Shown: piece after piece, positions 11,594 through 33,581 of the stretch | Position numbering within the stretch: position 1 is the stretch's first letter | Layout: every line of letters begins with the position of its first letter | Assembly (NCBI GenBank): GCA_043826435.1 | Contig: JBDRQF010000053.1 | Location: 896 to 64,895, forward strand | From: Elusimicrobiota bacterium | Lineage (GTDB): Bacteria > Elusimicrobiota > Endomicrobiia > CG1-02-37-114 > JAHJSO01 | DNA length: 64,000 nucleotides | Direction: 5' to 3' | Position numbers and translations under genes: made by a program | The notes under the pieces: generated by a model | The model's database searches: none | What the model was told of the DNA's origin: nothing | What the model saw: the letters and a program-made list of their open reading frames with translations, nothing else

Positions 11594-11661
11594 AAGACCA
11601 CTCCCGGAAATTCTTGAAGATATCAAAACGCTTGATGAAAAATCAAAAGAACTGGATAAAG

Positions 11662-11693
11662 AATTAAAAAAGATATTCAGCCAGATAAAATTT
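11662..11693. repeat. Right copy of the 32-bp direct repeat
   Basis: Identical to 10366-10397. Confidence 0.9.
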
Positions 11694-11757
11694 TAATGTG
11701 TTTTGTAGGGCAGAGATTTAGCCCTGCTAAGACAGATGTTAAAAACAGGAGAAAAAT

Positions 11758-12576: not shown

Positions 12577-12624
12577 GTAATTTGCGATACAGTGTTGCGT
12601 AATTCTGAAAATCGCAGACGGAAA

Positions 12625-12660
12625 AGATGTCATTGCGAGGAATGTAATGACGAAGCAGTC
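12625..12660. repeat. Degenerate partial copy of the GTCATTGCGAGG repeat unit
   Basis: 'GTCATTGCGAGGAATGTAATGACGAAGCA' is seen directly in the sequence. Confidence 0.5.
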
Positions 12661-12848
12661 ACGATGCAACATCTCTTTACGCATGGAACTCGCGGGGAAA
12701 AAACAAAACAAACAGAAATCTGTGGTGAGCAGGGTCGAACCATCGGCGAAATCCCTGAAAGATGGGAAGTGGTTGAATTAAGCAGCATTTGTGATTACGC
12801 AACTAGAAAATTGACATGGCCGGTGTATATCTCCGGTAGCCAAAGTTA

Positions 12849-13664
12849 ATGAATAATCATACTATAGCAAAAAACATCCTAATTCACAAACAGATAGGTG
12901 AGGTTGTTTCTGAATTTAACAGGGAGAATATTGACTTTATACTCCTGAAGGGGGCGGCACTCATAGAGATATTTCCCGACTATGCCTTTTCCCGCGATAT
13001 GGAAGATATAGACATCCTGGTAAAAAAAAGGTCTTTTTTGATGGCGAAACACATCCTGATAAACATTGGATATTCCTGTGCAATAGAGGACCCTGGTGCA
13101 TTTTTTAAGCAGGGGTTTCCCGCCCGTATTGACCTGTGTGATGGGTTGTGGTATCTGGACAGATCCGAGAACATCCTGTTGTTTAAAGAAGCAAAAATTT
13201 TTTTTGATATATCCGTTCTTTCCCCGGAGGATTTTTACATCCATGTTTTTGCGCACGCCTTTTTACATCACGCCAGAAGAGAGAGGGCGTGGTTGGATGA
13301 CTTGGCATTGCTTTCCGAGAGGTGGGCAGAGACAATAGATAAAAAGACATTAAGTTTAAAAATAAAAAAATACGGGTTTGACAGGGTGAGTAGCAACCCT
13401 TTTTATAACTGGTTTCTTGACAAGGAAATACCGCTTAAAGGACACATATTCAGATTTTTTTTCCTCCCGGTGAGAAAAAAGTTTTTATACATCAACGACC
13501 TTTTATTCCCGTCAGTTGATTTTCTTACGGGGAGGTATTCATTGAGAGGGTTCGGGCAGGTAGTTTGTTTTAGAATCATAAGACCCGCAATGTTGTTGTT
13601 TCAGTTTTTGAGATTTCTAACAGGGGTTGTTGGTTCCCTGTTTTTGCGCACCCAAAGTACTTAA
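12849..13664 (+). CDS. NTP_transf_5-type (PF14907-like) nucleotidyltransferase of unknown function
   Basis: 'QIGEVVSEFNRENIDFILLKGAAL...DMEDIDILVKK...GY' matches the family's N-terminal signature. Confidence 0.5.
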   Translation: MNNHTIAKNILIHKQIGEVVSEFNRENIDFILLKGAALIEIFPDYAFSRDMEDIDILVKKRSFLMAKHILINIGYSCAIEDPGAFFKQGFPARIDLCDGLWYLDRSENILLFKEAKIFFDISVLSPEDFYIHVFAHAFLHHARRERAWLDDLALLSERWAETIDKKTLSLKIKKYGFDRVSSNPFYNWFLDKEIPLKGHIFRFFFLPVRKKFLYINDLLFPSVDFLTGRYSLRGFGQVVCFRIIRPAMLLFQFLRFLTGVVGSLFLRTQST

Positions 13665-13680
13665 CATTCCGAACAATGTG

Positions 13681-13712
13681 GGAACTCAATGAAGCATCAG
13701 AGTTCCTTTCCT
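13681..13712 (+). terminator. Putative rho-independent terminator after the NTP_transf_5 gene
   Basis: Hairpin GGAACTC-(12 nt)-GAGTTCC followed by TTTCC. Confidence 0.35.
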
Positions 13713-13740
13713 GCGGCAGTAATCAATTGAATAATTAAAA

Positions 13741-13920
13741 AAATGCCAGCCCGCCAATCCTTGCAGTTCCATCGGTTGGTATAATTATGGTGGAAAGAAT
13801 TTTCAAAAGGGTGGTTTTACCAGCACCGTTTGGCCCGATGACAGCAGTTATTGAAGAAGGGGGAGATTCAAAAGATAACCCTGAGAGGGCAATAATTATA
13901 CTGTCCCCCATTAGTAGGGC
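13741..13920 (-). pseudogene. Truncated remnant of an ABC-transporter ATP-binding protein (N-terminal ~60 aa with Walker A)
   Basis: The minus-strand translation is 'LSGLSFESPPSSITAVIGPNGAGKTTLLKILSTIIIPTDGTARIGGLAFF*'. It stops right after the Walker A region and lies between the NTase gene and the IS remnant. Confidence 0.6.
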
Positions 13921-14000
13921 AGGCGAGTTAAGTTAGAGAAGGGCCTCTTGAAAAGACCTTACAAAAGAAGTAAAATAGGGGTCAAAAAGGAGGCACGGAG

Positions 14001-15064
14001 ATGGAGCGAAGGAAATGGGACAGTGCAAAGAAGTTTGAGGTGGTAGTGGAAGGGCTAAAGAGCGGGGTGTCAATCAGTGAGATGTGCAATCGGCACCAGA
14101 TATCGCAGGCGCAGTATTACAAATGGCGAGACCAGTTCATCAACAACGGCAGAAAAGTGTTTGAGATGCCTGCTAAGAACAAGGGGAGGAGCGGTTGAAG
14201 CAGGAGATAAGGAAGTTAAAGACAATCATTGGAGATTTGACGACGGAGTTAAAAAAAAACGACTACGAGTGAAACGGGCAAAATCACAAAAAGTTATGAA
14301 AAGGAATGCGGGGATAGTATCACAGATAAAAGAGATAAAAAGCGAGCATCCTTTGTGGGGATTTCGCCGGGTGTGGGCGTATATAAGATTTTAGAGGGGG
14401 ATTTTGGTAAATCGGAAACGGATATATCGTTTGATGAAAGAAAACGATTTGCTGGTTAGTCAGATAAAAAAGTTAAAAGCGGCCAAGAAAAATTAGAGCG
14501 ACAAAACCCGGCGAGGTTTGGGGCATAGATATGACGAAGGTTCTCACAAAAACTGGTTGGATAAATTTGGTCATAGTGCTTGACTGGTACACAAAGAAAA
14601 TAGTTGGTTTTAATGCAGAAGTTTACTCACGAGCCGATGAGTGGCTTAAGGCGTTGAACTTTGTGGTATTGGAACAGTTTCCCAACGGCATAAAGGAACA
14701 CGGGCCTCTATCACTGGTAAGCGACAACGGGAGTCAGCCGACGAGCGTTAAATTTATGAAGGAAACGTCGCTGCTCGGCATAAAACAGATATTCGCCAGT
14801 TACGACAATCCGAAAGGCAACGCCGACACTGAGCGAGTAATAAGGAAGCTAAAAGAGGATTTGGTCTGGCCGAGAGAGTTTGAAAATATTTATGAGTTCA
14901 AAGATGCGCTGTGTAAATTGGTGAACGATTACAACACGGACTTTCCGCATTCGTCGTTGAATTATCTGACGCCGGTAAAGTTTGAAGAAATATACCTGGC
15001 TGACCTGGCGCAGCAAAATATATTAAACCAGGGGGCCTTAAACTCTAACTTATTTTTCGCTTGA
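14001..15064 (+). mobile_element. Decayed IS3-family insertion sequence: an OrfA HTH fragment, then an OrfB (DDE/rve integrase) broken by frameshifts and stops
   Basis: OrfA-like 'SISEMCNRHQISQAQYYKWRDQF'. OrfB N-terminal 'IKEIKSEHPLWGFRRVWAYIRF'. An in-frame stop precedes 'ATKPGEVWGIDMTKV...GWINLVIVLDWYTKKIVG', then comes the rve core ending '...LNYLTPVKFEE'. Inverted terminal repeats were not identified. Confidence 0.7.
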
Positions 15065-15265
15065 CAAACGGGGGACAGTACATAATCTGTTTACCTCTGA
15101 CACGGAATACCTTTTTTAATCTCTCCGCATTTATGCTTATCATAATACCCGTTGCCTCAGGCCATCTGTTCCTCTGGCCACCTATTTCCCTTGCCGCTTA
15201 ACTTATGATATTCTGCCTCTTACTTCTTGCCCCCCGCCCTGTAGTCCACATTTTACCATTTTGTA

Positions 15266-15294
15266 TTGACAAATTCAAATATTTATAGTATAAT
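15266..15294 (+). promoter_or_regulatory. Perfect sigma70 consensus promoter, TTGACA-17 nt-TATAAT
   Basis: TTGACA at 15266-15271, a 17-nt spacer, TATAAT at 15289-15294. A 12-codon hydrophobic mini-ORF (MRVLKNLFLISF, 15304-15342) starts almost at the predicted transcription start. The HEPN gene lies about 230 nt downstream. Confidence 0.5.
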
Positions 15295-15527
15295 TCTAAC
15301 ATAATGAGAGTGTTGAAAAACCTCTTTTTGATTTCATTCTGAGTGAAACGAATAATCTCAATCAGTCGGAGTCGGGAATGACTATAGGTCTTTCCAATCT
15401 ATCGGGAAAAGGTTGATTTGATAACTGCAGGTTTGAAAAATAATTGAGTATTGAAAAAAAGTTGTTGATTTGCTACCATATTTGACAAGAGAGAAGGTCT
15501 CATAATTTCTATTAGAGTTTCACCAAT

Positions 15528-15914
15528 ATGAAAAACATTACAAAAAAATGGCTCGAGTTTGCTGAAAAAGATTTGAAAGTTGCTAATGATTTGTTAGAAA
15601 AGAAACACTGGCAGTATTGTGCTCTTTTCTGCCATCAAGCAATAGAAAAAATATTGAAAGCATACATTATTGAAAAAGGCAAGACTCCAAGAAAAATTCA
15701 TGATTTAACCAGTCTTTTGGTAGATGCGGGAATTAAGGTTTCCGAGCGTATTATTTCAATTGTTGAGACCTTAAATCCTCATTATATGCCACCACGATAT
15801 CCTGATATAGCTTACAAAATAAAACTCATTTATACCGAAGAAATTGCTTGGAATTTACTAAAATCTACACAGGAGATATTCAAATGGCTAAAAGACAAGT
15901 TGCACGAGAAATAG
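15528..15914 (+). CDS. HEPN-domain protein, the toxin partner of a HEPN/MNT pair
   Basis: 'CFCHQAIEKILKAYI...HDLTSL' is the HEPN signature. It overlaps the downstream MNT gene. Confidence 0.7.
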   Translation: MKNITKKWLEFAEKDLKVANDLLEKKHWQYCALFCHQAIEKILKAYIIEKGKTPRKIHDLTSLLVDAGIKVSERIISIVETLNPHYMPPRYPDIAYKIKLIYTEEIAWNLLKSTQEIFKWLKDKLHEK

Positions 15915-16219
15915 TTTATCAGTATATTCAACTTTTAGAAAATAAGATACGAATAGATAAAGTTATTCTCTTTGGTTCAAGTGCGAATGGAAAAATTGGA
16001 AGAAATAGTGACCTTGATATCATTATACTCTCGGATGACTTTAAGAAAATGAACTTCTTGAAAAGATTGGAACTTTTATCACGTGCGCGAGGCAGGGAAT
16101 GTATCTCGGTGCCAATGGATATTATTGGATATACTACAAAAGAGTTTTCCCGATCAAGTAAAGAATCATTAATTCTCGGGGAAGCCAAAAAGAACGGACA
16201 AGTAATTTGGTCAAGATAA
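15884..16219 (+). CDS. Minimal nucleotidyltransferase (MNT, Pol-beta superfamily), antitoxin partner of the HEPN protein
   Basis: 'ILFGSSANGKIGRNSDLDIIIL' matches the GS-x9-DxD NTase motif. The probable ATG at 15884 overlaps the HEPN 3' end. Confidence 0.7.
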   Translation: MAKRQVAREIVYQYIQLLENKIRIDKVILFGSSANGKIGRNSDLDIIILSDDFKKMNFLKRLELLSRARGRECISVPMDIIGYTTKEFSRSSKESLILGEAKKNGQVIWSR

Positions 16220-16237
16220 ATTATAGGGTTAGTTTGA

Positions 16238-16564
16238 TTGCTAAAAAATTTTTCTAAGAAAGAAATGATAGAAGTATATTCGTGGTTATTTGTATACAAG
16301 GAGTGGAGTAAACAGGAGAGAAAACCATTACAAGATAAGGGTTTTGAAGAAAGTTTCCGAGACTATCTTTGTAGGCATCAAATGAATTTTGATAGAGTGT
16401 CCAATGTTAGAGATATGGGATTTGGATTGTCTTACCAAACATTATCAGATATCCCTCATGAGTTAGATGTGATTTGTGTAAGAGGTAGTGAAATACATTC
16501 ACCTGGAGACGATGGAAACGATAGGAGTTTTGTTGTGAGGTCGTTTTATATAATTACAAGATAG
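16238..16564 (+). CDS. Hypothetical protein (108 aa) with no recognisable domain
   Basis: ORF with a TTG start (or the ATG at 16265). No signature recognised. Confidence 0.3.
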   Translation: MLKNFSKKEMIEVYSWLFVYKEWSKQERKPLQDKGFEESFRDYLCRHQMNFDRVSNVRDMGFGLSYQTLSDIPHELDVICVRGSEIHSPGDDGNDRSFVVRSFYIITR

Positions 16565-16575
16565 AGAAGTAAAAA

Positions 16576-18417
16576 ATGGCAAAAAATACAACCCAGTCAT
16601 TTTCAACTCATTGTAGCGAAAGATTTCAAAATCTGAGAATATACTTCTGGCCAGTTGTTATATTTTTATTTGCACTTTTGGTACGGTTATTTTACTGGAT
16701 GCAATTAAAAAATTTTCCTTTATCTCAGGTACCAGTTGTTGACGGTTTGTTCTATATAAAGTGGGCTGAGAGTATTAGTTTGGGTGATTGGTTAACTAAA
16801 TGGCAGGGAATATATTATTTAAATCCTGGTTATCCTTATCTTCTTTCATTCATTTTTTTGATTTTTGGGCGACAGATGCATTCTATACTTTTAATACAAT
16901 TTATTATAGGCACATTTAGTTGTGTGTTTGTTTATCTTCTTGCAAAAGAATATTTTAACCATAGAGTAGGAATTATATCTTCTATTGTTGCTTTGTTATA
17001 CGGTGTGTCACTTTTTTTAGAAGGGCTTCCTGTTACCGCCAGTTGGATTAATTTTTGGAATCTACTGATGTTACTGACCATCACAATTGCTCTTAAAAGA
17101 AATTCACTTTTGCTTTCTTTTTTTGCAGGAATATTCTTGGGATTATCAAATTTATTTAGAGCCGGCCCCGTAATATTGATTCCTGGAATTATTTTATATA
17201 TGTTTATTTCTGGTAAAAAGAAGAGGGAGATTGCGTATATATCAAGTTCGTTAATCCTGGGTTTTTTACTATTCTTTTTGCCAGTTATTTTGAGGAATTC
17301 TCTCTTTTCCAAACAACTTATTTTATCACCAACCGCTCATTCTGGAATAAATTTTTATATCGGTAACCATCTCCACGCAACTGGTTCATATGTACAAACA
17401 GAGTTTGATACAGGTGATCCTAAACTACAAATTCAAGATTACAGAAAAAGAGCAAGTCAAATTCTCGGGAGAGAGGTTTCTCTTAATGAATCTTCAAATT
17501 TTTGGTTTTCTGAAGGAATGAAGTTTATCAAGGGGAATCCTTTAAAGTGGTTAGCCCTCGTTGGAAGAAAGTTTTATTTACTCTTAGGTTATTATGAAAC
17601 AGGGTTAAATTATAGTTATTACTTTTTTCAAGAACAGATTTCGTTTTTAAAACTTCCATTTTTACTATCTTACGGTTTTATCGTTCCCTTTGCCTTAATA
17701 GGTCTGGTTTTATCTATAGAGCGAAAGAATCTACTCTTGCATTTTTTTATTATTTGTGCCGTTGTGGTATTACTTCTTTTTTATGTTACTACTGAATATA
17801 GATATTCTATTGTTCCGATTTTTATAATTTTTCACTCATACTTTCTTTATTGGATGTATGAACAGATAAAAACAAAAAGGTATAAGGTCCTTTGTCTCTC
17901 TTTGATGGCATCTTTAGGATGGGCACTATTTATTAATTTCCCAAGGAAGGAAATAAAGTTTGATAGAGATTATGTTAAATTGGCTACTGCGCATCTCACA
18001 TTAGGAGAAGCCGACCAAGGAATAGCATTGCTGGAGCGGGCTCTGGAATATAAGAAAGAAAGTTACATATATTATAACCTTGCTCATGCATATGCTTACG
18101 AGAAACATGACTATGTAAGAGCCATTGAAAATTACAAAAAAGCAATTGAATCAGACCTTAACAACCTGAATGCCTACGAAGAATTAGTTGAAGTATACTT
18201 AAAAACCAAAGAATATGAAAATGCAGAGAAGACATGTGAAGGGTTAATCAAAATATATCCCAAACATTATCCGATACATCAAATCCTGGGAAATATTTAT
18301 TATTTGCGAGGGAAGAAGAAACAGGCAATCCAATCCTGGGAAAATTCCCTTAGAATTTACCCGAATAACCCAGAATTGAGGAAAAACATAGAACGTCTTT
18401 TAGAGAAAAAAGGTTAA
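16576..18417 (+). CDS. Polytopic GT39/PMT_2 (ArnT-like) family glycosyltransferase with C-terminal TPR repeats
   Basis: About 10 predicted TM helices with PMT_2-like N-terminal loops ('DGLFYIKWAESI', 'NPGYPYLL'). The C-terminal 130 aa are TPR-like ('YNLAHAYAYEKHDYVRAIENYKKAIE...'). Confidence 0.55.
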   Translation: MAKNTTQSFSTHCSERFQNLRIYFWPVVIFLFALLVRLFYWMQLKNFPLSQVPVVDGLFYIKWAESISLGDWLTKWQGIYYLNPGYPYLLSFIFLIFGRQMHSILLIQFIIGTFSCVFVYLLAKEYFNHRVGIISSIVALLYGVSLFLEGLPVTASWINFWNLLMLLTITIALKRNSLLLSFFAGIFLGLSNLFRAGPVILIPGIILYMFISGKKKREIAYISSSLILGFLLFFLPVILRNSLFSKQLILSPTAHSGINFYIGNHLHATGSYVQTEFDTGDPKLQIQDYRKRASQILGREVSLNESSNFWFSEGMKFIKGNPLKWLALVGRKFYLLLGYYETGLNYSYYFFQEQISFLKLPFLLSYGFIVPFALIGLVLSIERKNLLLHFFIICAVVVLLLFYVTTEYRYSIVPIFIIFHSYFLYWMYEQIKTKRYKVLCLSLMASLGWALFINFPRKEIKFDRDYVKLATAHLTLGEADQGIALLERALEYKKESYIYYNLAHAYAYEKHDYVRAIENYKKAIESDLNNLNAYEELVEVYLKTKEYENAEKTCEGLIKIYPKHYPIHQILGNIYYLRGKKKQAIQSWENSLRIYPNNPELRKNIERLLEKKG

Positions 18418-18421
18418 AGTC

Positions 18422-20275
18422 ATGAAAAATTTTAAAACAACCCCTATTCTTGTAATATTTTTTCTTTTTTGTTTTACATTATTAGGTATTGATTCTCTTC
18501 GGCAAGAATCAGCTACCTTTGATGAATCTGAGCATTTAGCTGCTGGTTATTCTTATTGGAAAACGGGTGATTATAGATTAAATCCTGAGCATCCACCACT
18601 TATAAAAATGATTGCTGCGTTACCTTTGCTTTTATTCAATCCCACTTTCCCTAAAGAACATATCGCTTGGGAGAAAAGGTTACAGTTTGTAATCGGTGAC
18701 ATTTTCCTTTATCATAACTCTGTCGATGCCGAAAAGATGCTTTACCTTGGACGTATAATGCTCCTTCTAGTTATCACTATTCTTCTTGGTTGGATAATTT
18801 ATCGTTGGGGAACTGAACTTTATGGACATTTTGGAGGTTTATCAGCTTTATTCTTTTTCTCTTTTTGTCCGCCAATTATTGCTCATACAAAATTGATTAC
18901 TACTGATATGGGACTAACCTGTTTCTTTTTTTTATCTATCTATTTATTGTGGAAATTAAAGCGAAATCCATCCATATATCACGTTATTCTTTTTGGTTTA
19001 GCTTTCGGCGCCGCGTTAGAATCAAAATATTCAGCAATTCTTCTTTTTCCGATTTGTAGTCTATTAATCTTTTTATGGATAAGTGAACAGTATAAAAAAA
19101 CTAAATGGACAAAAGAAAGTGCTAGAATACTATATTATACAGCAGTCTTTTTTGTAGTTACTTTTTCTGTTGTTTTTCTCGTTTCTGGCTGTAGGATTAA
19201 TAATCTACACTGGTATTGGATAGGTTTGAATAAAGTTTTAACTAAATCCGCCGACGGAATGCCATCTTTTCTTATAGGGAAATATTCTACTGATGGCTGG
19301 TGGTATTATTTCTTAATAACTTTTCTGCTTAAAACACCTATTCCATTCCTAATTCTGTTATGTCTGGGTATTCGGTTTAGTTCTTTAAAGGAATCAAATT
19401 ATGTACGAAAAGAAATATTATGGCTTCTTATTCCTGTAATTATCTATTTTTTTATCGCTTCTTTTTCAAAGGTACAAATTGGACACAGATACATTCTGCC
19501 TATTTATCCTTTTCTCTTTGTCTGGGCTGGAGGAATTTCTTCTTCAATACAAGGAAAATTCAGATATTTACTATTAGGTGGACTTGCTGTGTGGTATGCA
19601 GGGAATACGTTGTATACCCATCCGCATCATCTATCATATTTTAATGAATTTGTCGGTCATCCGTCTAATGGGTATAAATATTTGGTTGAATCAAATCTGG
19701 ACTGGGGACAAGGACTGAAATTGCTCGGTCGATATCTTAAAAGTCAGCATGTGCAAAGTATTTATTTTTCTTATTTTGGTACCGCTGACCCAGCCTATTA
19801 TGGAATTAAATATGTCCCTATCAGCTTCGTAAGTGCTATAAATCGCACTGGTGATGAAGTTAACCCGCTAGACGAGCACCGCTGTTTATTCGCTATTTCA
19901 GCGACCAATCTCCAAGGGGTATATACACAGGGGCCTAACCGTTTCAGCTGGTTAAAAACGCGCTCCCCCATAAAAATTATTGCTAATTCAATATTTGTGT
20001 ACGATATTACTGACGATGTCGAAGCACATGAAATACTAGCGAGATATTTCACGATAGAAAAACAATATGATAAATCAATAAATCATTATAAACAAATAGT
20101 AAAATTGAACCCTGAGAATGGATTGGCATATCAATGTCTTGGTAATATATATTATATTCAAGGGAGAAAAGATTTAGCAAAAAAATATTGGGGGATTTCA
20201 TTAAATATTGAACCTAACAATCCTTTATTAAAAGAGAACTTGAAGAAGTTATCAGTCAATTTGAAAGAATGTTAA
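18422..20275 (+). CDS. Second GT39/PMT_2-family glycosyltransferase with C-terminal TPR repeats, a tandem paralog of the first
   Basis: 'FDESEHLAAGYSYWKTGDYRLNPEHPPLIKMIAALPL' is the conserved PMT_2/ArnT loop motif. The protein is polytopic, has a TPR tail, and starts 5 nt after the previous stop. Confidence 0.6.
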   Translation: MKNFKTTPILVIFFLFCFTLLGIDSLRQESATFDESEHLAAGYSYWKTGDYRLNPEHPPLIKMIAALPLLLFNPTFPKEHIAWEKRLQFVIGDIFLYHNSVDAEKMLYLGRIMLLLVITILLGWIIYRWGTELYGHFGGLSALFFFSFCPPIIAHTKLITTDMGLTCFFFLSIYLLWKLKRNPSIYHVILFGLAFGAALESKYSAILLFPICSLLIFLWISEQYKKTKWTKESARILYYTAVFFVVTFSVVFLVSGCRINNLHWYWIGLNKVLTKSADGMPSFLIGKYSTDGWWYYFLITFLLKTPIPFLILLCLGIRFSSLKESNYVRKEILWLLIPVIIYFFIASFSKVQIGHRYILPIYPFLFVWAGGISSSIQGKFRYLLLGGLAVWYAGNTLYTHPHHLSYFNEFVGHPSNGYKYLVESNLDWGQGLKLLGRYLKSQHVQSIYFSYFGTADPAYYGIKYVPISFVSAINRTGDEVNPLDEHRCLFAISATNLQGVYTQGPNRFSWLKTRSPIKIIANSIFVYDITDDVEAHEILARYFTIEKQYDKSINHYKQIVKLNPENGLAYQCLGNIYYIQGRKDLAKKYWGISLNIEPNNPLLKENLKKLSVNLKEC

Positions 20276-20347: not shown

Positions 20348-23300
20348 ATGAAAAGAAAACAGATATTCTTAAAGTGTATGTTGTTGTGTTTATTCACAAT
20401 TGGACAAGGAACCTCAACAGCATCGATAATTTCTGGAACAGGTACCCATTTTGAGATATCTATTGAGGATTCGCAAACACTAACTTTGGATAGTAGTCAA
20501 GATATCAATGTTCTGTTAGAATATACACCCGCTTGTGAGATTAGTATCTTGATAGGAAGTACCACACTTACTTCAACGCATCTTACATTGGGTGGACTTA
20601 CAGCCAATACGACATATTACAAATATCTAAATGGGGTGCTTTCAGAGCATTTCTTATCTCAACAGGATGGGAAATACGTCTTTTTGCAGGACCTTTCTGA
20701 ACCGTGCCACATCTTCTTTAGTATGGACAAGTTAACTCTATCTTATATTACACCAGATGGAAATGTTACACCAGCCACGGTGCCTATTAAAAGAGTTACT
20801 GATGAGACATATGTTCTTATTGGTGATATTGAGGGTTCCATAGTAGTTCAAAAGGATGGTATAACCATAGACCAGAATGGTTACGCTATTCGTGGTCAGA
20901 GTTCTTTCGGATATTATATAGTTTTCGGAAGAGATATAACCATAGAAAATGTAAATATTCAAGGATACACCTACGGTGTTTTCGCAGCATATTCTTATAG
21001 AATTTCTGTAATCAAAAGCACTATTACCTTGAATACAAATGGACTTTTCTTTCACTCGCAAGGCGGCGCTTTGATTTCTCAAAATTTAATATCTTCAAAT
21101 ACTATAGGAATTCACTTCTGGTCGCCAGGGCATGAAAATACAATAGAGGGTAATCATATTTGCAATAATGACATAGGTATACGAATAGCATCAGATATAT
21201 ACATTAGCCGCTACAACACTGTTAGAGGAAACACAATAACACAGAATACCTACGGAATAAATATAAGTTATTGTGAGGAATTTGAAGCAATACACAACAA
21301 CTTTATCAATAATACAACTCAAGTAGAAATAGGTCCATGGTGTAGGGGTCTTCGGTGGGACGATGGTTATCCATATGGTGGTAATTATTGGAGTGACTAC
21401 GTCGGAATTGACAATTACAGTGGTTCCAATCAAGACCAACCGAGGAGTGATTGGATTGGCGATACTCCATATATTATTAATGCGTCTTATAAAGACAATT
21501 ATCCATTCATGATGAAAGATGGCTGGCGTCTTGATACAACCCCACCAGTAAGTAAGTTAGAAGTTGGAAATCCAAAGTATGAATATGAAGGTAAAATCTA
21601 TGTATCTACGATAACAGAATTTACAATAACTGCTGACGATGGTGAAGGACGTGGTGTAAAACTGACCAAATACCGTATTGACGATCAACAACCGTGGATA
21701 CTTTATAAAGGCAATTTTACATTAGCCGGTATATCCGGTATTTCTATAATTCCAGGAGGATGCGTGGGATACTGGAAATTTGATGAAGGTGAAGGGGCAA
21801 CCGTAATTGATTCTGTTGGTACAAATGACGGGACAATCTGTAGCGCAACATGGACAGCAGGAAAAATTGGTAATGCATTAAGTTTTGATGGTGTAGATGA
21901 TTATGTGAGAGTTCCAAATAGTGATAGTTTTAATTTACATAAAAACAGTTTAACACTTGAGGCTTGGGTTTATCCAAAAGCATATACCGGATACTGGGAG
22001 GGAGGGATAATTGGTAGAGTTATAGATCCATACGGTTGGAGATTAAGTGTAAGAAGCACGCGATATTCTCCGGGAACAATTTGTGGGGGTGTACAGAATC
22101 TTGTTTGGATAGATTCTGTAGAGAAAGCACCGTTAAATATTTGGACACACATTGTTATGGTGTATGATTTTGATAAAGATATAGAACAACTTTGGGTAAA
22201 TGGAGTAAAAGATAATGAGGTGAGTTCTGTAAGGGATAAAGAAATTTACGCTAATTTCAATATTAATAGTCCTCTTGGGATTGGACTTTATTATTATCAG
22301 GGAAATCCAAATATGGGTGCGTGTTTTAACGGTCTTATCGATGAAGTAGCCATCTACAACCGGGCATTAACTCCTGAGGAAATATACTCAAGATATACAG
22401 TCACAATAGTCCCAATAACAGAAGGACATCACACGTTTTCATATTACAGTACTGACGTTGTAGATAACAAAGAGGTAGTGAAAAGTACAAACATTGTTGT
22501 CGATGTAACCTCACCAGATACACCACAAATGAACCTTGAGCCAGAATTCACTAGTTCTCTACAGAATACCGTTTCCTGGTTGGAATCAACTGATACCTTA
22601 AGTGGAGTTTATGGCTATTTAGTTGAATGTTCTACAATTGAGGATTTCACTACTATTTTTTCATCATCCAGCTGGATTAAAATTACAAGTTATACTTTCG
22701 CAAATCTTTCAGATGGTATAAAATACTTTTATCGTGTGAAAGCAAAAGATAATGTTGGGAATGAAACTATTTGGTCAAATGTTGTATGGTCAATACAAGA
22801 TAATACAGCTGCAACTTTTGAAGTAATACCCTCAACTGGTGGAATATCTGTTACTGCCGCAGGCACTATTAACATTGATATAATTGCCAGCGAACCTTTA
22901 GTTGCTGCGCCAACTGTTTATGTAACCCAGAGTGGTCAGGAATTTGCTACTGATATTACAGCAACATTAACCACTACTGATAATATTTCCTGGACAGGAA
23001 CTTATGATGTAACAAATAATTACGATGGTATAGCGATTATTGAAGTAACTGGTAAAGACCGGGTGGGCTATACCAGTAAAGGACGAGGTGGTTTTGAAGT
23101 AGCAATTGGTCCTACAGGTCAAAATATTATCATTAGTAATGTTTCTGATTCACCAGATCCTTTTTCGCCGAGGACAGGTGAATCAACAACAATCTATTAT
23201 GAACTTTCTACAAGTGGCGGACAAATTAGTATTACCACAACAACAATAACTTTTGAAAATGCTCAAGGAGTTATTGTTGACAGCGTAACTATTTTTAACC

Positions 23301-24904
23301 AAACAACGGGGGCACAACAAACTTTATGGGGCGGACTTGATACTAATAATTTTCCATTTCCCGATAGTAAATATACCTATCGTATAAATGTTTCTGGCTT
23401 CAAACAGCAAGGCCCAAACCAAGTACCAGTAAGTGCAATTGAAAAAGTTGGAGAAATAACGCTTCTAAGTTATGCAGAGTTAGACACAACAGGATGTACA
23501 ATATCTAATCCATCTAATGCAGAGATTACAATTACCCCGGTAAGTGCAGTTTTGCCCTCAGCATTTGGAATACAATCAGGTAATGTTGGCTCAATTTATG
23601 AAATAGAACCAACCAATACAACATTTTCACCAGCAGCGATTTTGATTTTACGCTATACTGATGACGAATTAGCTGAAAAAGGAATTGATGAAAACACATT
23701 AGATATATACAAATTTATAGACGGTGTATGGGTTGCTCAAGGTGCAACATTAGACACAGTAAATAATACTTTAACCCTTGCTGTTACTTCTTTATCTTAT
23801 TTTGTTATACTAACCTCGGAATTTGTTGCTACTCCTGTTGCAGAACTTGACACAACACCACCAACCTTTGTGACTCATCTGACCATTGACCCCGAAGTAA
23901 CAGATAATTTAACAATAACTATAACTGCTTCTGAACTACTACTATTACCACCTAAAGTAACGGTTTATCCACATGGTAATAGTCCTCAAAAAGAGAGTGT
24001 AAAGGTAAATGTGAGTTTAGTGGAAGGTAGTGAGACAGTTTATGCAGGAACATTCAGTAGCATTACTGGTTTTGGTGACATAGATAGAATAGTTGTAGTC
24101 GGGAGAGATTTAGCAGGGAATGAAGGAGTAAGCGACGGAACATATACAAAGAATGTAATTTCTTCTGCTGGTGGAGTAATTTCTGATGCCAGAGGAAAAG
24201 GTGTAACAGTAGATATTCCAGAAGGAGCGATAACCGGAGAAATAATTGTCACTATCAGGGCTGAAGATAAAAGTAATTCAGTTCTGGAAAACAAGAAAAA
24301 GGCATCTGCTCAAAAACAGGAACTTAAACTTATTGGAGTAGGATACAAATTTGGTCCTGATGGGACACAGTTTTCTAAACCTGTGAATATTAGTATTCCT
24401 TATAGTAATGAAGACATTGATGGTATAGATGAAAAAACATTGAAAATGGCTTATTGGAATGTATCTATTAGTAAATGGGAATTACTTAAAACTTCACAAT
24501 CCAGGACAGAAGAAAATATAGTAACAGCAGAAGTTACTCATTTTTCGCTCTATAAAATTGTTGCTGGAGTAGAAAAAGTTTTAGGGCCACAACCAGATGC
24601 AACATTCAAAGAAGGAGAAATATATGCATATCCAAACCCAGCAAAGGGTAGCAAAAACCCAACGATACATGTAGAATGTGGTATTGCCGACGGGGTAGAG
24701 ATAAGATTTTACAATCTTGCTGCCGAACTTGTGAGTGCCGTGGAATTAGCAGGAACTGACTGGAAAATCAGAGACAACGAATACTATTATGAATACACAT
24801 GGGATGTATCAAATGTAGCGAGCGGTGTGTATGTGTATTTAGTGCAAGCAAAGAAAGACGATAAGGTAATAAGAACAGTAAAAAAAGTTGCAGTAATAAA
24901 ATAG
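20348..24904 (+). CDS. Giant secreted surface protein (1518 aa): signal peptide, right-handed parallel beta-helix repeats, a LamG-like domain, FN3/Ig-like domains, and a conserved C-terminal cassette ending in a T9SS-type sorting domain
   Basis: Signal peptide 'MKRKQIFLKCMLLCLFTIGQG'. Beta-helix repeats 'NTIEGNHICNNDIGIRIA...RGNTITQNTYGINISY...HNNFINNT'. LamG motif 'GYWKFDEGEGATVIDSVGTNDGTI...ALSFDGVDDYVRVPNS...LTLEAWVYP'. C-terminus 'YAYPNPAKGSKNPTIHV...FYNLAAELV...ASGVYVYLVQA...KKVAVIK'. Confidence 0.75.
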   Translation: MKRKQIFLKCMLLCLFTIGQGTSTASIISGTGTHFEISIEDSQTLTLDSSQDINVLLEYTPACEISILIGSTTLTSTHLTLGGLTANTTYYKYLNGVLSEHFLSQQDGKYVFLQDLSEPCHIFFSMDKLTLSYITPDGNVTPATVPIKRVTDETYVLIGDIEGSIVVQKDGITIDQNGYAIRGQSSFGYYIVFGRDITIENVNIQGYTYGVFAAYSYRISVIKSTITLNTNGLFFHSQGGALISQNLISSNTIGIHFWSPGHENTIEGNHICNNDIGIRIASDIYISRYNTVRGNTITQNTYGINISYCEEFEAIHNNFINNTTQVEIGPWCRGLRWDDGYPYGGNYWSDYVGIDNYSGSNQDQPRSDWIGDTPYIINASYKDNYPFMMKDGWRLDTTPPVSKLEVGNPKYEYEGKIYVSTITEFTITADDGEGRGVKLTKYRIDDQQPWILYKGNFTLAGISGISIIPGGCVGYWKFDEGEGATVIDSVGTNDGTICSATWTAGKIGNALSFDGVDDYVRVPNSDSFNLHKNSLTLEAWVYPKAYTGYWEGGIIGRVIDPYGWRLSVRSTRYSPGTICGGVQNLVWIDSVEKAPLNIWTHIVMVYDFDKDIEQLWVNGVKDNEVSSVRDKEIYANFNINSPLGIGLYYYQGNPNMGACFNGLIDEVAIYNRALTPEEIYSRYTVTIVPITEGHHTFSYYSTDVVDNKEVVKSTNIVVDVTSPDTPQMNLEPEFTSSLQNTVSWLESTDTLSGVYGYLVECSTIEDFTTIFSSSSWIKITSYTFANLSDGIKYFYRVKAKDNVGNETIWSNVVWSIQDNTAATFEVIPSTGGISVTAAGTINIDIIASEPLVAAPTVYVTQSGQEFATDITATLTTTDNISWTGTYDVTNNYDGIAIIEVTGKDRVGYTSKGRGGFEVAIGPTGQNIIISNVSDSPDPFSPRTGESTTIYYELSTSGGQISITTTTITFENAQGVIVDSVTIFNQTTGAQQTLWGGLDTNNFPFPDSKYTYRINVSGFKQQGPNQVPVSAIEKVGEITLLSYAELDTTGCTISNPSNAEITITPVSAVLPSAFGIQSGNVGSIYEIEPTNTTFSPAAILILRYTDDELAEKGIDENTLDIYKFIDGVWVAQGATLDTVNNTLTLAVTSLSYFVILTSEFVATPVAELDTTPPTFVTHLTIDPEVTDNLTITITASELLLLPPKVTVYPHGNSPQKESVKVNVSLVEGSETVYAGTFSSITGFGDIDRIVVVGRDLAGNEGVSDGTYTKNVISSAGGVISDARGKGVTVDIPEGAITGEIIVTIRAEDKSNSVLENKKKASAQKQELKLIGVGYKFGPDGTQFSKPVNISIPYSNEDIDGIDEKTLKMAYWNVSISKWELLKTSQSRTEENIVTAEVTHFSLYKIVAGVEKVLGPQPDATFKEGEIYAYPNPAKGSKNPTIHVECGIADGVEIRFYNLAAELVSAVELAGTDWKIRDNEYYYEYTWDVSNVASGVYVYLVQAKKDDKVIRTVKKVAVIK

Positions 24905-24930
24905 TAAATAAAACAAGGGGTAGAAAATCA

Positions 24931-25902
24931 ATGAATAAAAACATTATAAAAAAAGTTTTGGGATTATCAATTGGAAATATGTTATTATGCTGTTTTGCAG
25001 TAACTAATTGTTTATCAGAAACAACAGGTGCCTCTTTTCTAAAAATTGGTGTTGGAGCAAGACCGATTGCTATGGGTTCCGCATTCACAGCAGTAGCAAA
25101 CGATGTCACCGGGATATACTGGAATCCTGCCGGACTACTACAATTAACCAAAAGAGAAATTTCAGCAATGCATACAGAATGGATAGCAAACACACGGCTT
25201 GACTTTATTGGATATGCCCAGCCAACAAGAGCGGGTGTGTTTGGCTGTGGTATAATCTACTTATCACAGCAAGATATAGAAGGCAGAGATGAAAACCGAC
25301 AGATAACCAGTCCATTTGGTGCAAGTGACCTTGCAGTGACATTGAGTTATAGTCGTCACCTGACCGAGTTATCAAGATTAGTATCAGCAGGACTAAATGT
25401 AAAATTCATCCAGCAGAACATAGAAAATTATACAGCTCATGGAATAGCAATAGACATAGGCACACTTTATCAGACACCGATAAACAATCTCAAAGCAGGG
25501 CTATCAATTCAGAATATAGGACCACAGATGAAGTTCATCAGCCAGACATATAATCTACCCTTGACAGCGACATTTGGGATTGGGTACACAATGAGCGGAA
25601 TAGTCATTGCATTAGACCTCAAACAGCAGGTATATGAAGGCAGAACAATAATTTCAGCAGGAACAGAGTATTGTCCAATGAACTTAATTGTTCTGCGGAT
25701 AGGCTATGCTGGAAAGTTGACAGAAAGCATACTTTCAAACAGGGATATAATTCAAGGAAACAATACAGACAGCACAAACTTCACTGGCTTTGGTGCAGGG
25801 CTCGGCTTACGACTTTTTACCAACTATCAAATGGACTACTCATTTGCTCCTTATGGTCTGCTGGGGGATACACACAGGATAAGTTTTTTGGCAAGATTTT
25901 AG
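24931..25902 (+). CDS. PorV/PorQ-family-like outer-membrane beta-barrel protein (323 aa) directly downstream of the sorting-domain cargo gene
   Basis: Signal peptide, then 'TTGASFLKIGVGARPIAMGSAFTAVANDVTGIYWNPAGL'. Amphipathic beta-strand patterning to a C-terminal '...GLLGDTHRISFLARF'. About 80% aa identity to ORF 32574-33545. Confidence 0.55.
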   Translation: MNKNIIKKVLGLSIGNMLLCCFAVTNCLSETTGASFLKIGVGARPIAMGSAFTAVANDVTGIYWNPAGLLQLTKREISAMHTEWIANTRLDFIGYAQPTRAGVFGCGIIYLSQQDIEGRDENRQITSPFGASDLAVTLSYSRHLTELSRLVSAGLNVKFIQQNIENYTAHGIAIDIGTLYQTPINNLKAGLSIQNIGPQMKFISQTYNLPLTATFGIGYTMSGIVIALDLKQQVYEGRTIISAGTEYCPMNLIVLRIGYAGKLTESILSNRDIIQGNNTDSTNFTGFGAGLGLRLFTNYQMDYSFAPYGLLGDTHRISFLARF

Positions 25903-30907: not shown

Positions 30908-31760
30908 TTAATTTTTTTATTGCCTCCCGCTCCTGCCCGGAAAAAAGTTTAACGCGGTTTTCAAGTTCATCCCAGTTTATGTCATCTCCGTCAAATTCAG
31001 GCCCGTCAACACATGCAAATTTCATTTTTCCCGAGACGGTTACCCTGCAACTGCCGCACATGCCCGTACCGTCAATCATAATGGGGTTAAGGGAAACAAC
31101 GGTTCTTATGCCTGCCTCTTTTGCAATTTCACAAACCCTTTTCATCATGAGGACCGGCCCCGCAGAATAAACGAGCGAAATCCCTCCGCTCCCCGGCGCC
31201 GTCACAAGTTTTTTAAGAACGTCCGTTACGAACCCCTTGTCTCCCGCAGTCCCGTCGTCGGTAGCGATGAAGAGCCGGTCGCCCGCCTTTTTAAAATCGT
31301 CCAGAAGTATCAGCATTGACGCCGACCTCGCCCCGACAATGACGTCCACCGTATTGCCTTTTGATTTAAGCGCCCCGCACACCGGAAGGACTTCCGCGGC
31401 CCCGACTCCGCCCGCCACGACTACCACATTCCCATAATACATTATTTCAGCCGCTTTGCCTAATGGACCTGCGATGTCATGCAGGGCATCCCCGGGTTTG
31501 AGACGTCCGAGCAGAGTGGTAGTAACCCCTACTTCCTGGAATACGATTGTAAGAATGCCCGTGGCAGGGGTTTTTTTAGCAACGGTCAGGGGGATTCTCT
31601 CCCCGTTCTTATGGACCCTTATAATTACAAACTGTCCCGGCTGAATTTTCCGTGCGATTTCAGGCGAGAACACTTCAATTTGTTTGATTTTTTCTGCAAG
31701 CGGCAGGATGCTTATGATGTTATTCTTTTTCAAGTTCAATGTTCCAGTAAACGCTGTCAA
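30894..31760 (-). CDS. nfnA: NfnA/SudB-like ferredoxin-NADP reductase-type small subunit (PyrK-like, [2Fe-2S])
   Basis: 'GQFVIIRVHKNGERIPLT' (FAD-binding barrel). 'VVAGGVGAA'. C-terminal 'CGSCRV' Cys motif. Confidence 0.55.
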   Translation of the reverse strand: MTAFTGTLNLKKNNIISILPLAEKIKQIEVFSPEIARKIQPGQFVIIRVHKNGERIPLTVAKKTPATGILTIVFQEVGVTTTLLGRLKPGDALHDIAGPLGKAAEIMYYGNVVVVAGGVGAAEVLPVCGALKSKGNTVDVIVGARSASMLILLDDFKKAGDRLFIATDDGTAGDKGFVTDVLKKLVTAPGSGGISLVYSAGPVLMMKRVCEIAKEAGIRTVVSLNPIMIDGTGMCGSCRVTVSGKMKFACVDGPEFDGDDINWDELENRVKLFSGQEREAIKKLNDKK

Positions 31761-32316
31761 TAAATTTCTGCCAGGATGATTTTACTTTAGCAGGGCTTTT
31801 CAGAATTAACGAGAGGCATGGGTTTACCGCAGGACGGTTCGGTTTGATTTTAAGTTTCATCCCTGCCTCTTCAAGCAGGAAACTACCCTTTTTAAGGTTG
31901 CATGAGATACAGGAAGTTACCACATTTTTCCAGTCGGTCCTACCTCCGCGGGAGCGCGGGACAACGTGGTCAAGGTTTAATTGTGTCGGAGGTAACTTTT
32001 TACCGCAGTAACAGCACTTGTAGTTGTAGTGTTCGTATATGTTTCGTCTTGTGAATTTCACGTCCCTGAAAGGCACCCTGTCGTAGAATTTCAGGGCGAT
32101 GACCTCTGGTATGGCGATTCTCAATGCAGGGGTTTTTACAAACCCGCCCGGGTGGGCCTTTATATACCGGGAGATTTCACACCAGTCACCGAAGGAATAC
32201 GTCTTGTATTCTTCGTCAACGACGGATGCCCTGTCCATATAGACAAGACGCAGAGCCCTCCGCCATGTAGTAATCTGTATTGCAAAAAAGTTTCTGTTTA
32301 ATACAAGGACATCCAT
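31720..32316 (-). CDS. Stand-alone HNH endonuclease
   Basis: 'CCYCGKK...LDHVVPRSRGGRTDWKNVVTSCISCN' is the HNH/zinc-finger motif. The 3' end overlaps the nfnA start by 41 bp. Confidence 0.65.
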   Translation of the reverse strand: MDVLVLNRNFFAIQITTWRRALRLVYMDRASVVDEEYKTYSFGDWCEISRYIKAHPGGFVKTPALRIAIPEVIALKFYDRVPFRDVKFTRRNIYEHYNYKCCYCGKKLPPTQLNLDHVVPRSRGGRTDWKNVVTSCISCNLKKGSFLLEEAGMKLKIKPNRPAVNPCLSLILKSPAKVKSSWQKFIDSVYWNIELEKE

Positions 32317-32573
32317 TGTTAAGTTATTCTTGATTTAGTCGATTTTCTGACATGGCGCACATCTGTTTCTTCTTTTGTTTTGATTTTTTCGGGTCTTTCA
32401 ATAAAGTGAGCAATCGGGGATAACTTCATCTAATATAGTGGGCAAAATTATCCTATTAACTTTAATTCTGCCACCCAAAATGCTCCACTTTTTTCCTTTC
32501 TTCCGTAATAAAGCAAAAATCTTAATCTGTCTGTACTACCCACTCTTTTAGAAAGACCTAAATAATGGAATGA

Positions 32574-33545
32574 TTAAAATCTTGCAGAAAAACTTATTCT
32601 GTGTGTATCACCAAGTAAACCATATGGCACAAATGAATAATCCATCTGGTAGTTGGTGAAGAGTTTCAAGCCAAGCCCTGCTCCAAAGCCTGTGAAATTT
32701 GTCTTATCTATATTATCTTGTGTTATTATGTCTTTATTTGATATTACACCTTCTATTAACTTACCTGCATATCCTGCTCGTAGTGCTAATATATTTACTG
32801 GACAATATTCTGTCCCTACACTTACTATTGTTCTTCCTTCGTATATTTGTTGTTTTATATCAACTGCTACTGTTATTGCACTTATAGTGTAGCCGAGTCC
32901 TGCTGTAACGGTTAATGGCAGATTGTATCCTTCTGAGATAAATTTCATCTGTGGACCTATGTTCTGTATTGATAGCCCTGCTTTCAGGTTGTTTATTGGT
33001 GTCTGGTAAAGTGTTCCTAAATCTATTGCTACTCCCTGTGCTGTGTGGTTTTCTATGTTTTGCTGAATGATCTTAAGATTTAATCCTGCTGAGAGTGATT
33101 TTGAAAGTTCTGGCATGACTTTACTATAACTCAATGTTACTGCAAGGTCATTTGCAGAAAATGGATTGGTTCTTTGACGATTCACATCTCTACCTTCTAT
33201 TTCTCCTTGAGATAAATATATTACACTCCCTGCAACAACTCCTGACTTGAGAGGGTGAGCATAACTAATAAAGTCAAGTTTTGTATCTACTAACCATTCT
33301 GTATGCATTGCTGAGATTTCTCTTTTGCTTAATTGTGCAAGTCCTGCTGGATTCCAGTGTATTGCTGTTACATCGGTTGCTACAGCGGTAAATGCAGAAC
33401 CCATTCCTATTGGACGAGCACCTATGCCAATATTAAGAAACGAAGCACCTGTTGTTTCTGAAAAACAGTTAGCAATTGTAAAACAGAATAATAGTAAAGT
33501 TACAGTTGATAACACTGAAATTTTTTTGATAATGTTTCTGTTCAT
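32574..33545 (-). CDS. PorV/PorQ-family-like outer-membrane beta-barrel protein, paralog of 24931-25902, directly downstream of the minus-strand cargo gene
   Basis: 'TTGASFLNIGIGARPIGMGSAFTAVATDVTAIHWNPAGL'. C-terminal '...GLLGDTHRISFSARF'. 323 aa. Confidence 0.55.
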   Translation of the reverse strand: MNRNIIKKISVLSTVTLLLFCFTIANCFSETTGASFLNIGIGARPIGMGSAFTAVATDVTAIHWNPAGLAQLSKREISAMHTEWLVDTKLDFISYAHPLKSGVVAGSVIYLSQGEIEGRDVNRQRTNPFSANDLAVTLSYSKVMPELSKSLSAGLNLKIIQQNIENHTAQGVAIDLGTLYQTPINNLKAGLSIQNIGPQMKFISEGYNLPLTVTAGLGYTISAITVAVDIKQQIYEGRTIVSVGTEYCPVNILALRAGYAGKLIEGVISNKDIITQDNIDKTNFTGFGAGLGLKLFTNYQMDYSFVPYGLLGDTHRISFSARF

Positions 33546-33581
33546 TGATTTTCTACCTCTACAGTAGTTTCTTGCTCACTA

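Follow-up and report, generated by a model that had tools for sequence, protein, structure and literature searches.

Cargo and barrel genes in the window

The sequence considered here is a 64,000-nt stretch of contig JBDRQF010000053.1 (assembly GCA_043826435.1, positions 896–64,895), called the window below, from a metagenome-assembled genome (MAG) of the Elusimicrobiota, a phylum outside the Fibrobacteres–Chlorobi–Bacteroidetes (FCB) group. In it, a gene for a putative surface protein (cargo), ending in a domain that resembles the C-terminal sorting domains (CTDs) of type IX secretion systems (T9SS), is followed on the same strand by a gene for a predicted outer-membrane barrel of the PorV/PorQ family (barrel). 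This two-gene module had been proposed to occur three times in a first-pass annotation made from the sequence, and three same-strand cargo-barrel pairs could be mapped. Their genes are listed here (aa, amino acids; FN3, Ig and the like are domain names).

6355–8634, + strand: cargo 1, 759 aa from the ATG at 6355; signal peptide, PQQ/BamB-like beta-propeller, ZU5-like domain, type-A-like CTD
8731–10371, + strand: barrel 1, 546 aa; PorV/PorQ-family barrel with C-terminal extension (NF033709, 152.4 bits)
9790–10368, + strand: extension of barrel 1, about 190 aa, putatively periplasmic; no Pfam family match
20348–24904, + strand: cargo 2, 1518 aa; signal peptide, NosD-type beta-helix, Laminin_G_3, FN3, FlgD-Ig-like, ZU5, type-A-like CTD
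24931–25902, + strand: barrel 2, 323 aa; N-terminal hatch (GARPIAMG...WNPAGL), C-terminal Phe (NF033709, 188.3 bits)
33582–36857, − strand: cargo 3, 1091 aa; signal peptide, FN3/Ig-like, FlgD_ig, ZU5-like domain, CTD
32574–33545, − strand: barrel 3, 323 aa; paralogue of barrel 2 with 73% amino-acid identity (NF033709, 200.4 bits)

All six proteins have a signal-peptide-like N-terminus, and the propeller of cargo 1 matches PF13360 with 117.8 bits. The gaps between cargo and barrel are short, at 96, 26, and 36 nt in modules 1, 2, and 3. No terminator-like site was found in the two gaps scanned, those of modules 2 and 3; promoter scans were uninformative, with counts the same as in shuffled sequence. 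The cargo genes had initially been taken for the 3′ halves of giant genes. They are instead complete: the open reading frame (ORF) ahead of cargo 1, at 18–6185, is separate, with its own stop and no CTD, and cargo 1, with only 759 aa, is not a giant.

Family and fold of the barrels

The cut-off of 90 bits for the NCBIfam “PorV/PorQ family” model (NF033709) is exceeded by all three barrels (152.4–200.4 bits), and barrel 2 is 100% identical to a protein listed by NCBI as “PorV/PorQ family protein [Elusimicrobiota bacterium].” The narrower equivalog models all scored below their cut-offs: 131, 136, and 90 bits for PorQ (NF033711, cut-off 220), 75, 90, and 43 bits for PorV (NF033710, cut-off 250), and 97, 101, and 72 bits for PorV2 (NF052325, cut-off 325). 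PorQ is the best among them, and the barrels score higher on it than on the PorV model. No barrel matched PorP/SprF (PF11751, TIGR03519) at E ≤ 0.1 in NCBIfam or Pfam, and matches to FadL/OmpP1/TodX (PF03349) were below the cut-off of 29.7 bits, at 12.2, 22.7, and 18.1 bits. Matches to PF03687 (UPF0164) were 43, 42.5, and 21.9 bits (cut-off 21.4).

An AlphaFold2 (AF2) model of barrel 2 was obtained with a pLDDT of 90.2 and a pTM of 0.84. Its best Foldseek matches are to Flavobacterium johnsoniae PorV in SprA translocon complexes (8gl6_F, TM 0.74, E = 2e-14; 6h3i_F, TM 0.73, E = 4e-13), with FadL and TodX ranking after PorV at a TM of about 0.6. Barrel 2 is accordingly modelled as a FadL-fold outer-membrane barrel, which by homology to PorV would have 14 strands. 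The initial assignment of the barrels as PorV/PorQ-like, not generic FadL proteins, holds for all three by the family model and the PF03349 scores, and is matched by the predicted fold.

Common to the three barrels is the sequence GARPI(A/G/S)MG...DV...WNPAGL. In the first description the variable position was given as A or S; the motif is present throughout, but barrel 3 has G there. The WNPAGL element is the “NPA” signature of the FadL-family hatch, a mark of the family and not specific to the T9SS. The most conserved motifs of the family sit in this N-terminal hatch. Barrels 2 and 3 end in Phe, as is usual in outer-membrane barrels. Related barrels in other genomes often have additional C-terminal domains of OmpA (peptidoglycan-binding), TPR, HEAT, FlgD-Ig-like, or CarboxypepD_reg-like type, which are probably periplasmic (loci L019, L030, L044, L050, L058, L067, L072, and L079). 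Some distant relatives in Elusimicrobia, of about 460–516 aa (P0207, P0209, P0210, and P0215–P0219), have a precomputed match to CsgG (PF03783), an unexpected combination. A homologue search started from an Elusimicrobiales barrel gave MAG-derived or unnamed proteins only, and none from a cultured Elusimicrobium.

The C-terminal domains of the cargos

The positions of the CTDs are:

8347–8631, + strand: CTD of cargo 1, last 95 aa (TIGR04183 and PF18962)
24617–24901, + strand: CTD of cargo 2, last 95 aa (103.6 bits with our own CTD hidden Markov model; PF18962 20.7 bits, below cut-off)
33585–33869, − strand: CTD of cargo 3

The three tails are homologous to each other, with 31–67% identity when aligned over the last 95 residues. 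They share the motif YPNPA(K/R)...(A/G)ELV...ASG(V/M)(Y/F)(V/I)Y...K(V/L)A(V/I)I(K/H), including the PNP, GxY, and terminal K-x-x-x-x-K elements, and the motifs on which they had first been called type-A Por_Secre_tail-like are present in each. Comparison with the curated models gave a mixed result. The CTD of cargo 1 passes both TIGR04183 (30.6 bits, cut-off 23) and PF18962 (39.9 bits, cut-off 27), but that of cargo 3 falls slightly under them (22.2 and 19.2 bits, respectively), and that of cargo 2 has only a PF18962 match, of 20.7 bits, also below the cut-off. For the type B sorting models, there was no TIGR04131 match in any cargo, and PF13585 (CHU_C) matched only cargo 3, with 23.9 bits (cut-off 27). 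Because the matches to the type A models are partly sub-threshold and those to the type B models are below cut-off, the tails are best described as “type-A-like.”

The CTD of cargo 2 is modeled as a seven-strand beta domain. When the window was searched with a profile built from the three tails, these three were its only CTD-ending ORFs, each adjoining a barrel gene.

Pairing across related loci

From contigs of one genome per species, 79 loci with barrel homologues were collected, and their barrel and CTD-ending ORFs were identified with our own profiles. The genome of the window is not among them; the best match has 56% identity. The loci come from about 12 phyla, the sources being Elusimicrobiota, Endomicrobiales, WOR-3, FCPU426, Firestone-, Goldi-, Desantis-, Eisen-, and Zixibacteria, Poribacteria, Ignavibacteria, Bacteroidetes, and Spirochaetia. 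Together with the three of the window there are 99 barrel ORFs, of which 89 could be assessed once eight at contig ends, one behind an assembly gap, and one fragment were removed.

A CTD-ending ORF lies directly upstream on the same strand in 68 of these 89, usually at a distance of −20 to +100 nt. Since CTD ORFs make up only about 12% of genes in these loci, the association of cargo and barrel is far beyond chance. Another two of the 89 have an extra ORF inserted between cargo and barrel, and seven are second barrels in CTD-led clusters with the order CTD, barrel, (HAMP protein), barrel. The cargos range from 200 to 3300 aa, with unrelated passengers (beta-helix, FN3, Ig, CARDB, propeller, LamG). 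At least seven barrel ORFs are found across the loci of one related MAG, and a CTD-then-barrel pair is present in a Spirochaetia MAG (L078). In about a dozen phyla, cargo and barrel genes are thus usually laid out as this two-gene cassette.

When all neighboring genes in the 79 loci were clustered, no third gene family was found to be conserved around the modules. Two candidates for a conserved third component were rejected: PMT_2/TPR genes, found in only seven loci, and sensor kinases, in only nine.

In L021, one of the two cases with an inserted ORF, an ORF resembling a group-II-intron reverse transcriptase/maturase (7952–9982) lies between the gene for a 2650-aa CTD cargo and its barrel gene. 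A larger conserved cluster was found in L055, L060, L062, L068/L069, and L070 (FCPU426, Firestonebacteria, Goldbacteria, and unclassified MAGs). It begins with a Big_1/invasin-like CTD protein of about 580–630 aa, followed by a barrel of about 430 aa with a FlgD-Ig-like tail, a HAMP-domain protein of about 200 aa, and a barrel of about 550 aa with an OmpA domain.

CTD and barrel as a unit

Modules 2 and 3 are similar at the DNA level only in their CTD and barrel regions. The CTD regions (24594–24906 and 33580–33892) are 71% similar, and those covering the ribosome-binding site and barrel (24916–25901 and 32575–33560) 75%. Consistent with this, protein alignment between cargos 2 and 3 is restricted to their last ~500 residues. 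CTD and barrel have been co-inherited and duplicated as a unit. The two also diverge together in the wider set: in the 68 pairs, the matrices of CTD identity and barrel identity are correlated with r = 0.84 (Mantel p = 0.001). Specific recognition of CTD by barrel would be expected to give the same co-divergence.

A ZU5 domain and HFS motif preceding the CTD

Ahead of the CTD, the cargos have a second conserved feature, mapped as follows.

8299–8307, + strand: HFS of cargo 1, predicted ZU5-type autoproteolysis site
24152–24568, + strand: ZU5-fold domain of cargo 2 (PF00791 26.4 bits, cut-off 21; AF2 and Foldseek)
24539–24547, + strand: HFS of cargo 2
33978–33986, − strand: HFS of cargo 3

The ZU5-like region of cargo 1 scores 18.4 bits with PF00791, below the cut-off of 21. 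The sequence HFS(L/T)Y is found in all three cargos, 111–134 residues before the C-terminus, and in an alignment of 19 divergent sequences its His is the sole invariant residue. Of the 68 CTD proteins encoded beside a barrel, 22 contain a motif of the form H[FWY][ST]; among 31 CTD proteins encoded elsewhere, none does.

A homologue search with the last 264 aa of cargo 2 returned one weak match and not the query protein itself, and the ZU5-CTD structure was therefore predicted from an alignment of three sequences. The model covers these 264 residues; its mean pLDDT is 65, with 75–91 in the ZU5 part. Its top 16 Foldseek matches in the PDB are all to ankyrin ZU5 domains (E = 1.5e-5, TMt 0.57), and HFS sits in the turn between the last two ZU5 strands. 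The best alignment obtained with a profile of this region is to the ADGRB2 GAIN domain, where HFS coincides with the HLS cleavage motif, but at E = 0.011 this is marginal.

The ZU5, GPS, and Nup98 domains have been grouped in one autopeptidase superfamily, and large surface proteins of bacteria have been predicted to undergo ZU5 autoprocessing (PMC3482391). The HFS in the ZU5 domain of the cargos matches the signature of cis-autoproteolysis of this type, and we infer that cleavage may occur there. Cargos 2 and 3 also have a second ZU5-like repeat upstream (about 23522–23850 in cargo 2, residues ~1059–1165), in which SLSYF or QVSLY replaces HFS. It looks degenerate and non-cleaving, in a tandem ZU5-ZU5 layout like those of ankyrin and PIDD.

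T9SS core genes

Domains of PorK/L/M/N (gldK-N), SprA/Sov, and PorU had been reported as missing from the window, and none was found in Pfam scans of its main ORFs, which did not cover the short-ORF stretches at about 15.1–16.5, 25.9–26.4, and 62.8–64.0 kb. T9SS core domains were also not found among the neighboring genes scanned in related loci. Of the 97 Bacteroidetes genomes in a systematic survey, 60 had the T9SS, which was found in no other clade (PMC4793230), and reviews confine it to the Bacteroidota or the FCB group (PMC11205867, PMC11611037). The literature searched contained no link between Elusimicrobia and the T9SS.

Genomic surroundings of the modules

Most of the window is taken up by an exopolysaccharide or O-antigen-type cluster, with Wza, Wzc, Wzx, Wzy_C, AsmA, and many glycosyl- and methyltransferases. 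Other features near the modules are:

18–6185, + strand: separate ORF of at least 2055 aa, with Lamin-tail, FN3, and beta-propeller domains and no CTD; own stop at 6183–6185
6194–6395 and 8635–8730: clusters of GC-rich palindromic repeats
10739–12576: HEPN/nucleotidyltransferase pair and Fic-like and BRO-N genes, beside the modules
14531–15064: truncated rve integrase, beside the modules
16576–18417 and 18422–20275 (pair 16576–20275), + strand: two tandem PMT_2 (GT-C glycosyltransferase) and TPR genes (Pfam), directly upstream of cargo 2
31720–32316: HNH endonuclease, beside the modules

Several genes near the modules (rve, HEPN/nucleotidyltransferase, Fic, BRO-N, HNH) are of mobile or defense type. 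G+C content is uneven, at 0.29–0.40 in modules 2 and 3 and many of the glycan genes and 0.46–0.52 elsewhere (10000–20000 and 32000–48000 compared with the flanks), and in other assemblies of the same population contigs break around 26.0–26.6 kb. The uneven G+C, the mobile and defense genes beside the modules, and these contig breaks suggest that the module region is variable and horizontally shuffled. Module 3 is also found in the assembly GCA_018830385.1.

The two PMT_2/TPR genes belong to the family noted above as adjoining modules in seven loci, with three copies in L008. They may be accessory genes, of uncertain membership in the module, and the enzymes may glycosylate the cargo.

The terminal propeller blades of ORF 18–6185 resemble those opening cargo 1. 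A single interrupted giant gene was considered for the two, and is excluded by the clean stop at 6183–6185, by ~170 nt of repeats resembling repetitive extragenic palindromic (REP) sequences (GTCATTGCGAGG...GAAGCAATC) that separate them, and by the new signal peptide at 6355. An alternative ORF start at 6118 merely adds translated repeats to cargo 1, giving a spurious VIARGEAPKQS...CHCEERS N-terminus. The palindromic repeats have the form GTCATTGCGAGG..GCGAAGCC..GCAATC, with inverted arms TGTCATTGCGAG and CTCGCAATGACA; they lie upstream of cargo 1 and fill the spacer between cargo 1 and barrel 1.

A possible receptor-anchor pair and its alternatives

Our preferred reading of these modules is that CTD and barrel are a dedicated receptor-anchor pair in a two-gene surface-display cassette, which we judge to have about an even chance of being right. 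The first gene would encode a Sec-exported protein consisting of a variable adhesin- or enzyme-like passenger, a ZU5-fold domain with HFS, a short linker, and a type-A-like beta-sandwich CTD, and the second, 26–96 nt downstream, a PorV/PorQ-family FadL-fold outer-membrane barrel. The CTD would serve as an address tag, docking on its own barrel from the extracellular side and remaining there uncleaved, like PorU on PorV and PorZ on PorQ. Each barrel would in this way receive and anchor a single surface protein, to which it is dedicated, and would not be a shuttle used in common. If the HFS within the ZU5 domain were cleaved between F and S, the passenger would be bound only non-covalently to a stub of one beta-strand, linker, and CTD, and shedding would become possible, as it is for GAIN/GPS and FIIND proteins. 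The passenger might cross the outer membrane by way of a SprA-type translocon encoded elsewhere, by another pathway, or through the barrel itself. Gene order, barrel family and fold, CTD homology, ZU5 fold and motif, adjacency in about 12 phyla, duplication as a unit, and co-divergence are the observations from which this proposal starts; physical binding of CTD to barrel, anchoring, and autoproteolysis are what we infer in addition.

An anchor is favored over a mobile shuttle because the barrels score higher as PorQ than as PorV, no PorU was found in the window, and many relatives are fused to putative periplasmic OmpA, TPR, HEAT, or FlgD-Ig-like domains. Such fusions recall PorE, which is bound to peptidoglycan and is the partner of PorP. 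The first-pass annotation had suggested a new variant in which each cargo has its own shuttle. A layout with one barrel for each type-A-like cargo was indeed not described in the literature searched, where type A CTDs are all served by a single PorV and genetically linked partners are a feature of type B cargo with PorP/SprF (PMC12618676). The role of shuttle is the less supported part: the PorQ scores and the putatively periplasmic OmpA and TPR domains of relatives are in better agreement with a fixed anchor. Dedicated partners had also been said to be known only for type B cargo, but for type-A-like CTDs there are precedents in PorU-PorV and PorZ-PorQ: these uncleaved CTDs remain bound to PorV and PorQ (PMC10202324).

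Several points weigh against a receptor-anchor pair. The evidence for CTD-barrel binding is of one kind only, conserved gene adjacency, and simple co-inheritance of neighboring genes would also give the co-divergence described above. Twelve of the 89 barrels are orphans. Two of the three CTDs (cargos 2 and 3) are slightly under the curated thresholds, and only about a third of module cargos have the HFS motif. The ZU5-CTD model is of moderate confidence only (mean pLDDT 65, three sequences), and the ankyrin ZU5 domains that are its best fold matches do not cleave. Finally, a periplasmic domain for anchoring is absent from barrels 2 and 3, which could still be mobile, and PorV, to which the barrel 2 model is closest in structure, acts as a mobile shuttle of the T9SS.

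These last points would fit an alternative that we consider unlikely, in which a complete T9SS is encoded elsewhere in the genome and the barrels are specialized shuttles, each collecting its own type-A-like cargo at SprA and delivering it to its destination, in the manner of the PorP/SprF-like partners of type B cargo in Flavobacterium. The closest structure is PorV in SprA translocon complexes, the CTDs are type-A-like, and barrels 2 and 3 lack a fixed periplasmic domain. For type B, it is established that genes for cargo and shuttle form cognate pairs (PMC12618676, PMC9143113), and the module is also found in FCB lineages (WOR-3, Zixibacteria, Ignavibacteria, and Bacteroidetes MAGs), a group in which the T9SS has been reported (PMC11205867). 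However, no T9SS core domain was found in the 64-kb window or among the scanned neighbors, and no third gene is conserved in the 79 loci; the Elusimicrobiota are outside the FCB group, the survey found the T9SS only in Bacteroidetes (PMC4793230), and no literature was found linking it to Elusimicrobia. The OmpA-domain fusions of relatives speak against mobility. Treponema pallidum is not known to have a T9SS. The same barrel family (UPF0164) occurs there (PMC10600179), which also argues against specialized shuttles.

If there is no T9SS, the barrel could itself be an outer-membrane translocon, or a device for insertion coupled to the beta-barrel assembly machinery (BAM), recognizing a C-terminal beta domain as Slam (type XI) does. 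The 14-strand Slam/DUF560 barrels are encoded beside their substrates and recognize a C-terminal beta domain. Autonomous two-gene secretion along these lines would account for the strict one-to-one coupling without a conserved third partner, reaching phyla with no known T9SS, and for the duplication of CTD and barrel as a unit. In FadL, the N-terminal hatch fills the barrel lumen. The predicted barrel retains this N-terminal region, where the family's most conserved motifs, including the NPA signature, are located, and passengers of 750–3300 aa folded as beta-helix or propeller would be too wide for a plugged FadL-type barrel. Moreover, no FadL-family protein translocator is known, and PorV, PorQ, and PorP only bind proteins (PMC10202324). 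Such a secretion role for the barrel appears distinctly improbable.

A role of the barrels in ordinary FadL-type import of hydrophobic compounds, like that suggested for treponemal UPF0164 proteins, with incidental adjacency to CTD genes, would be in keeping with the FadL fold, the conserved NPA hatch motif, the PF03687 matches, and the weak ones to PF03349, but with PF03349 below and NF033709 far above cut-off in all three, CTD-gene adjacency for 68–77 of the 89 barrels in about 12 phyla, and duplication of CTD and barrel as a unit, this is very improbable and is disfavored by the conserved gene order.

Implications

The component families are already known and named by NCBI; it is their arrangement that is new relative to the literature searched. 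Beyond the first-pass annotation, the present analysis adds the breadth of the cassette across non-FCB phyla, its cassette-like duplication, and the ZU5 site. A cassette common in phyla without a known T9SS challenges both the rule of one PorV for all type A cargo and the confinement of such systems to the Bacteroidota or FCB group. Either an unrecognized T9SS-like translocon exists in those phyla, or a CTD-barrel anchor is older and self-standing and was later adopted by the T9SS.

A more far-reaching reading can be put forward as possible, if on balance doubtful. It would make CTD and PorV/PorQ-like barrel an autonomous, T9SS-independent module for surface display, and possibly secretion, widespread outside the FCB group (including in Elusimicrobiota, Firestonebacteria, Goldbacteria, FCPU426, and Spirochaetota), and an ancestral unit recruited into the T9SS as PorV, PorQ, and PorP. 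In many members, ZU5 autocleavage would yield a non-covalently held, sheddable adhesin, a bacterial counterpart of the GAIN architecture of adhesion G-protein-coupled receptors (GPCRs).

The ZU5/HFS site predicts that the adhesin-like cargos would be cleaved and yet held non-covalently. The natural cognate pairs, three of them diverged in the window, provide material for working out rules of CTD-to-barrel matching, and the cassette could become a compact two-gene tool for surface display.

Comparison with known systems

In Porphyromonas gingivalis, porU and porV are neighboring genes. PorU-PorV and PorZ-PorQ of the T9SS attachment complex in this species resemble the modules in that an uncleaved type-A-like CTD remains docked to a PorV/PorQ-family barrel with the FadL fold (PMC10202324). 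The partners in the window differ in being diverse adhesin- or enzyme-like passengers, neither the sortase PorU nor PorZ, the carrier of anionic lipopolysaccharide (A-LPS). There are also several pairs per genome (three in the window), the scores are below the equivalog cut-offs, and the phylum has no known T9SS.

PorV as a general type A shuttle (6H3I, 8GL6) is the best structural match, belongs to the same family by hidden Markov model, and binds type A CTDs. It serves all type A cargo (PMC12618676), whereas each cargo in the window has its own barrel; the PorV equivalog scores are just 43–90 bits, and SprA was not found in the window. One cargo with one genetically linked barrel is the pattern of type B cargo and PorP/SprF-like barrels, such as SprB-SprF of F. 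johnsoniae, where the cargo depends on its own barrel to be secreted and anchored at the surface (PMC12618676, PMC9143113). In contrast, the CTDs in the window are type-A-like and the barrels are of the PorV/PorQ family, with no PorP/SprF match.

Treponemal UPF0164 proteins, some of which have C-terminal extensions, are regarded as FadL-type importers. The FadL-like members TP0548, TP0856, TP0858, TP0859, and TP0865 of T. pallidum are in the same Pfam family, PF03687, as the barrels (PMC10600179). A more distant likeness is to the Slam or type XI systems, in which a small outer-membrane barrel is also encoded beside the surface protein it handles and recognizes its C-terminal beta domain; the barrel family is a different one. 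The N-terminal part of Slam is a periplasmic TPR domain.

For the ZU5 domain, the comparison is with the ZU5, GPS (GAIN), and FIIND domains of PIDD, adhesion GPCRs, NLRP1, and CARD8, and of bacterial polymorphic toxins and surface proteins. They have in common the ZU5 fold and an invariant His in an H-F/L-S/T motif before the last strand. The cargo domain, for which cleavage is a prediction only, differs from all of these in that it directly precedes a T9SS-like CTD and is enriched in cargo paired with a barrel.

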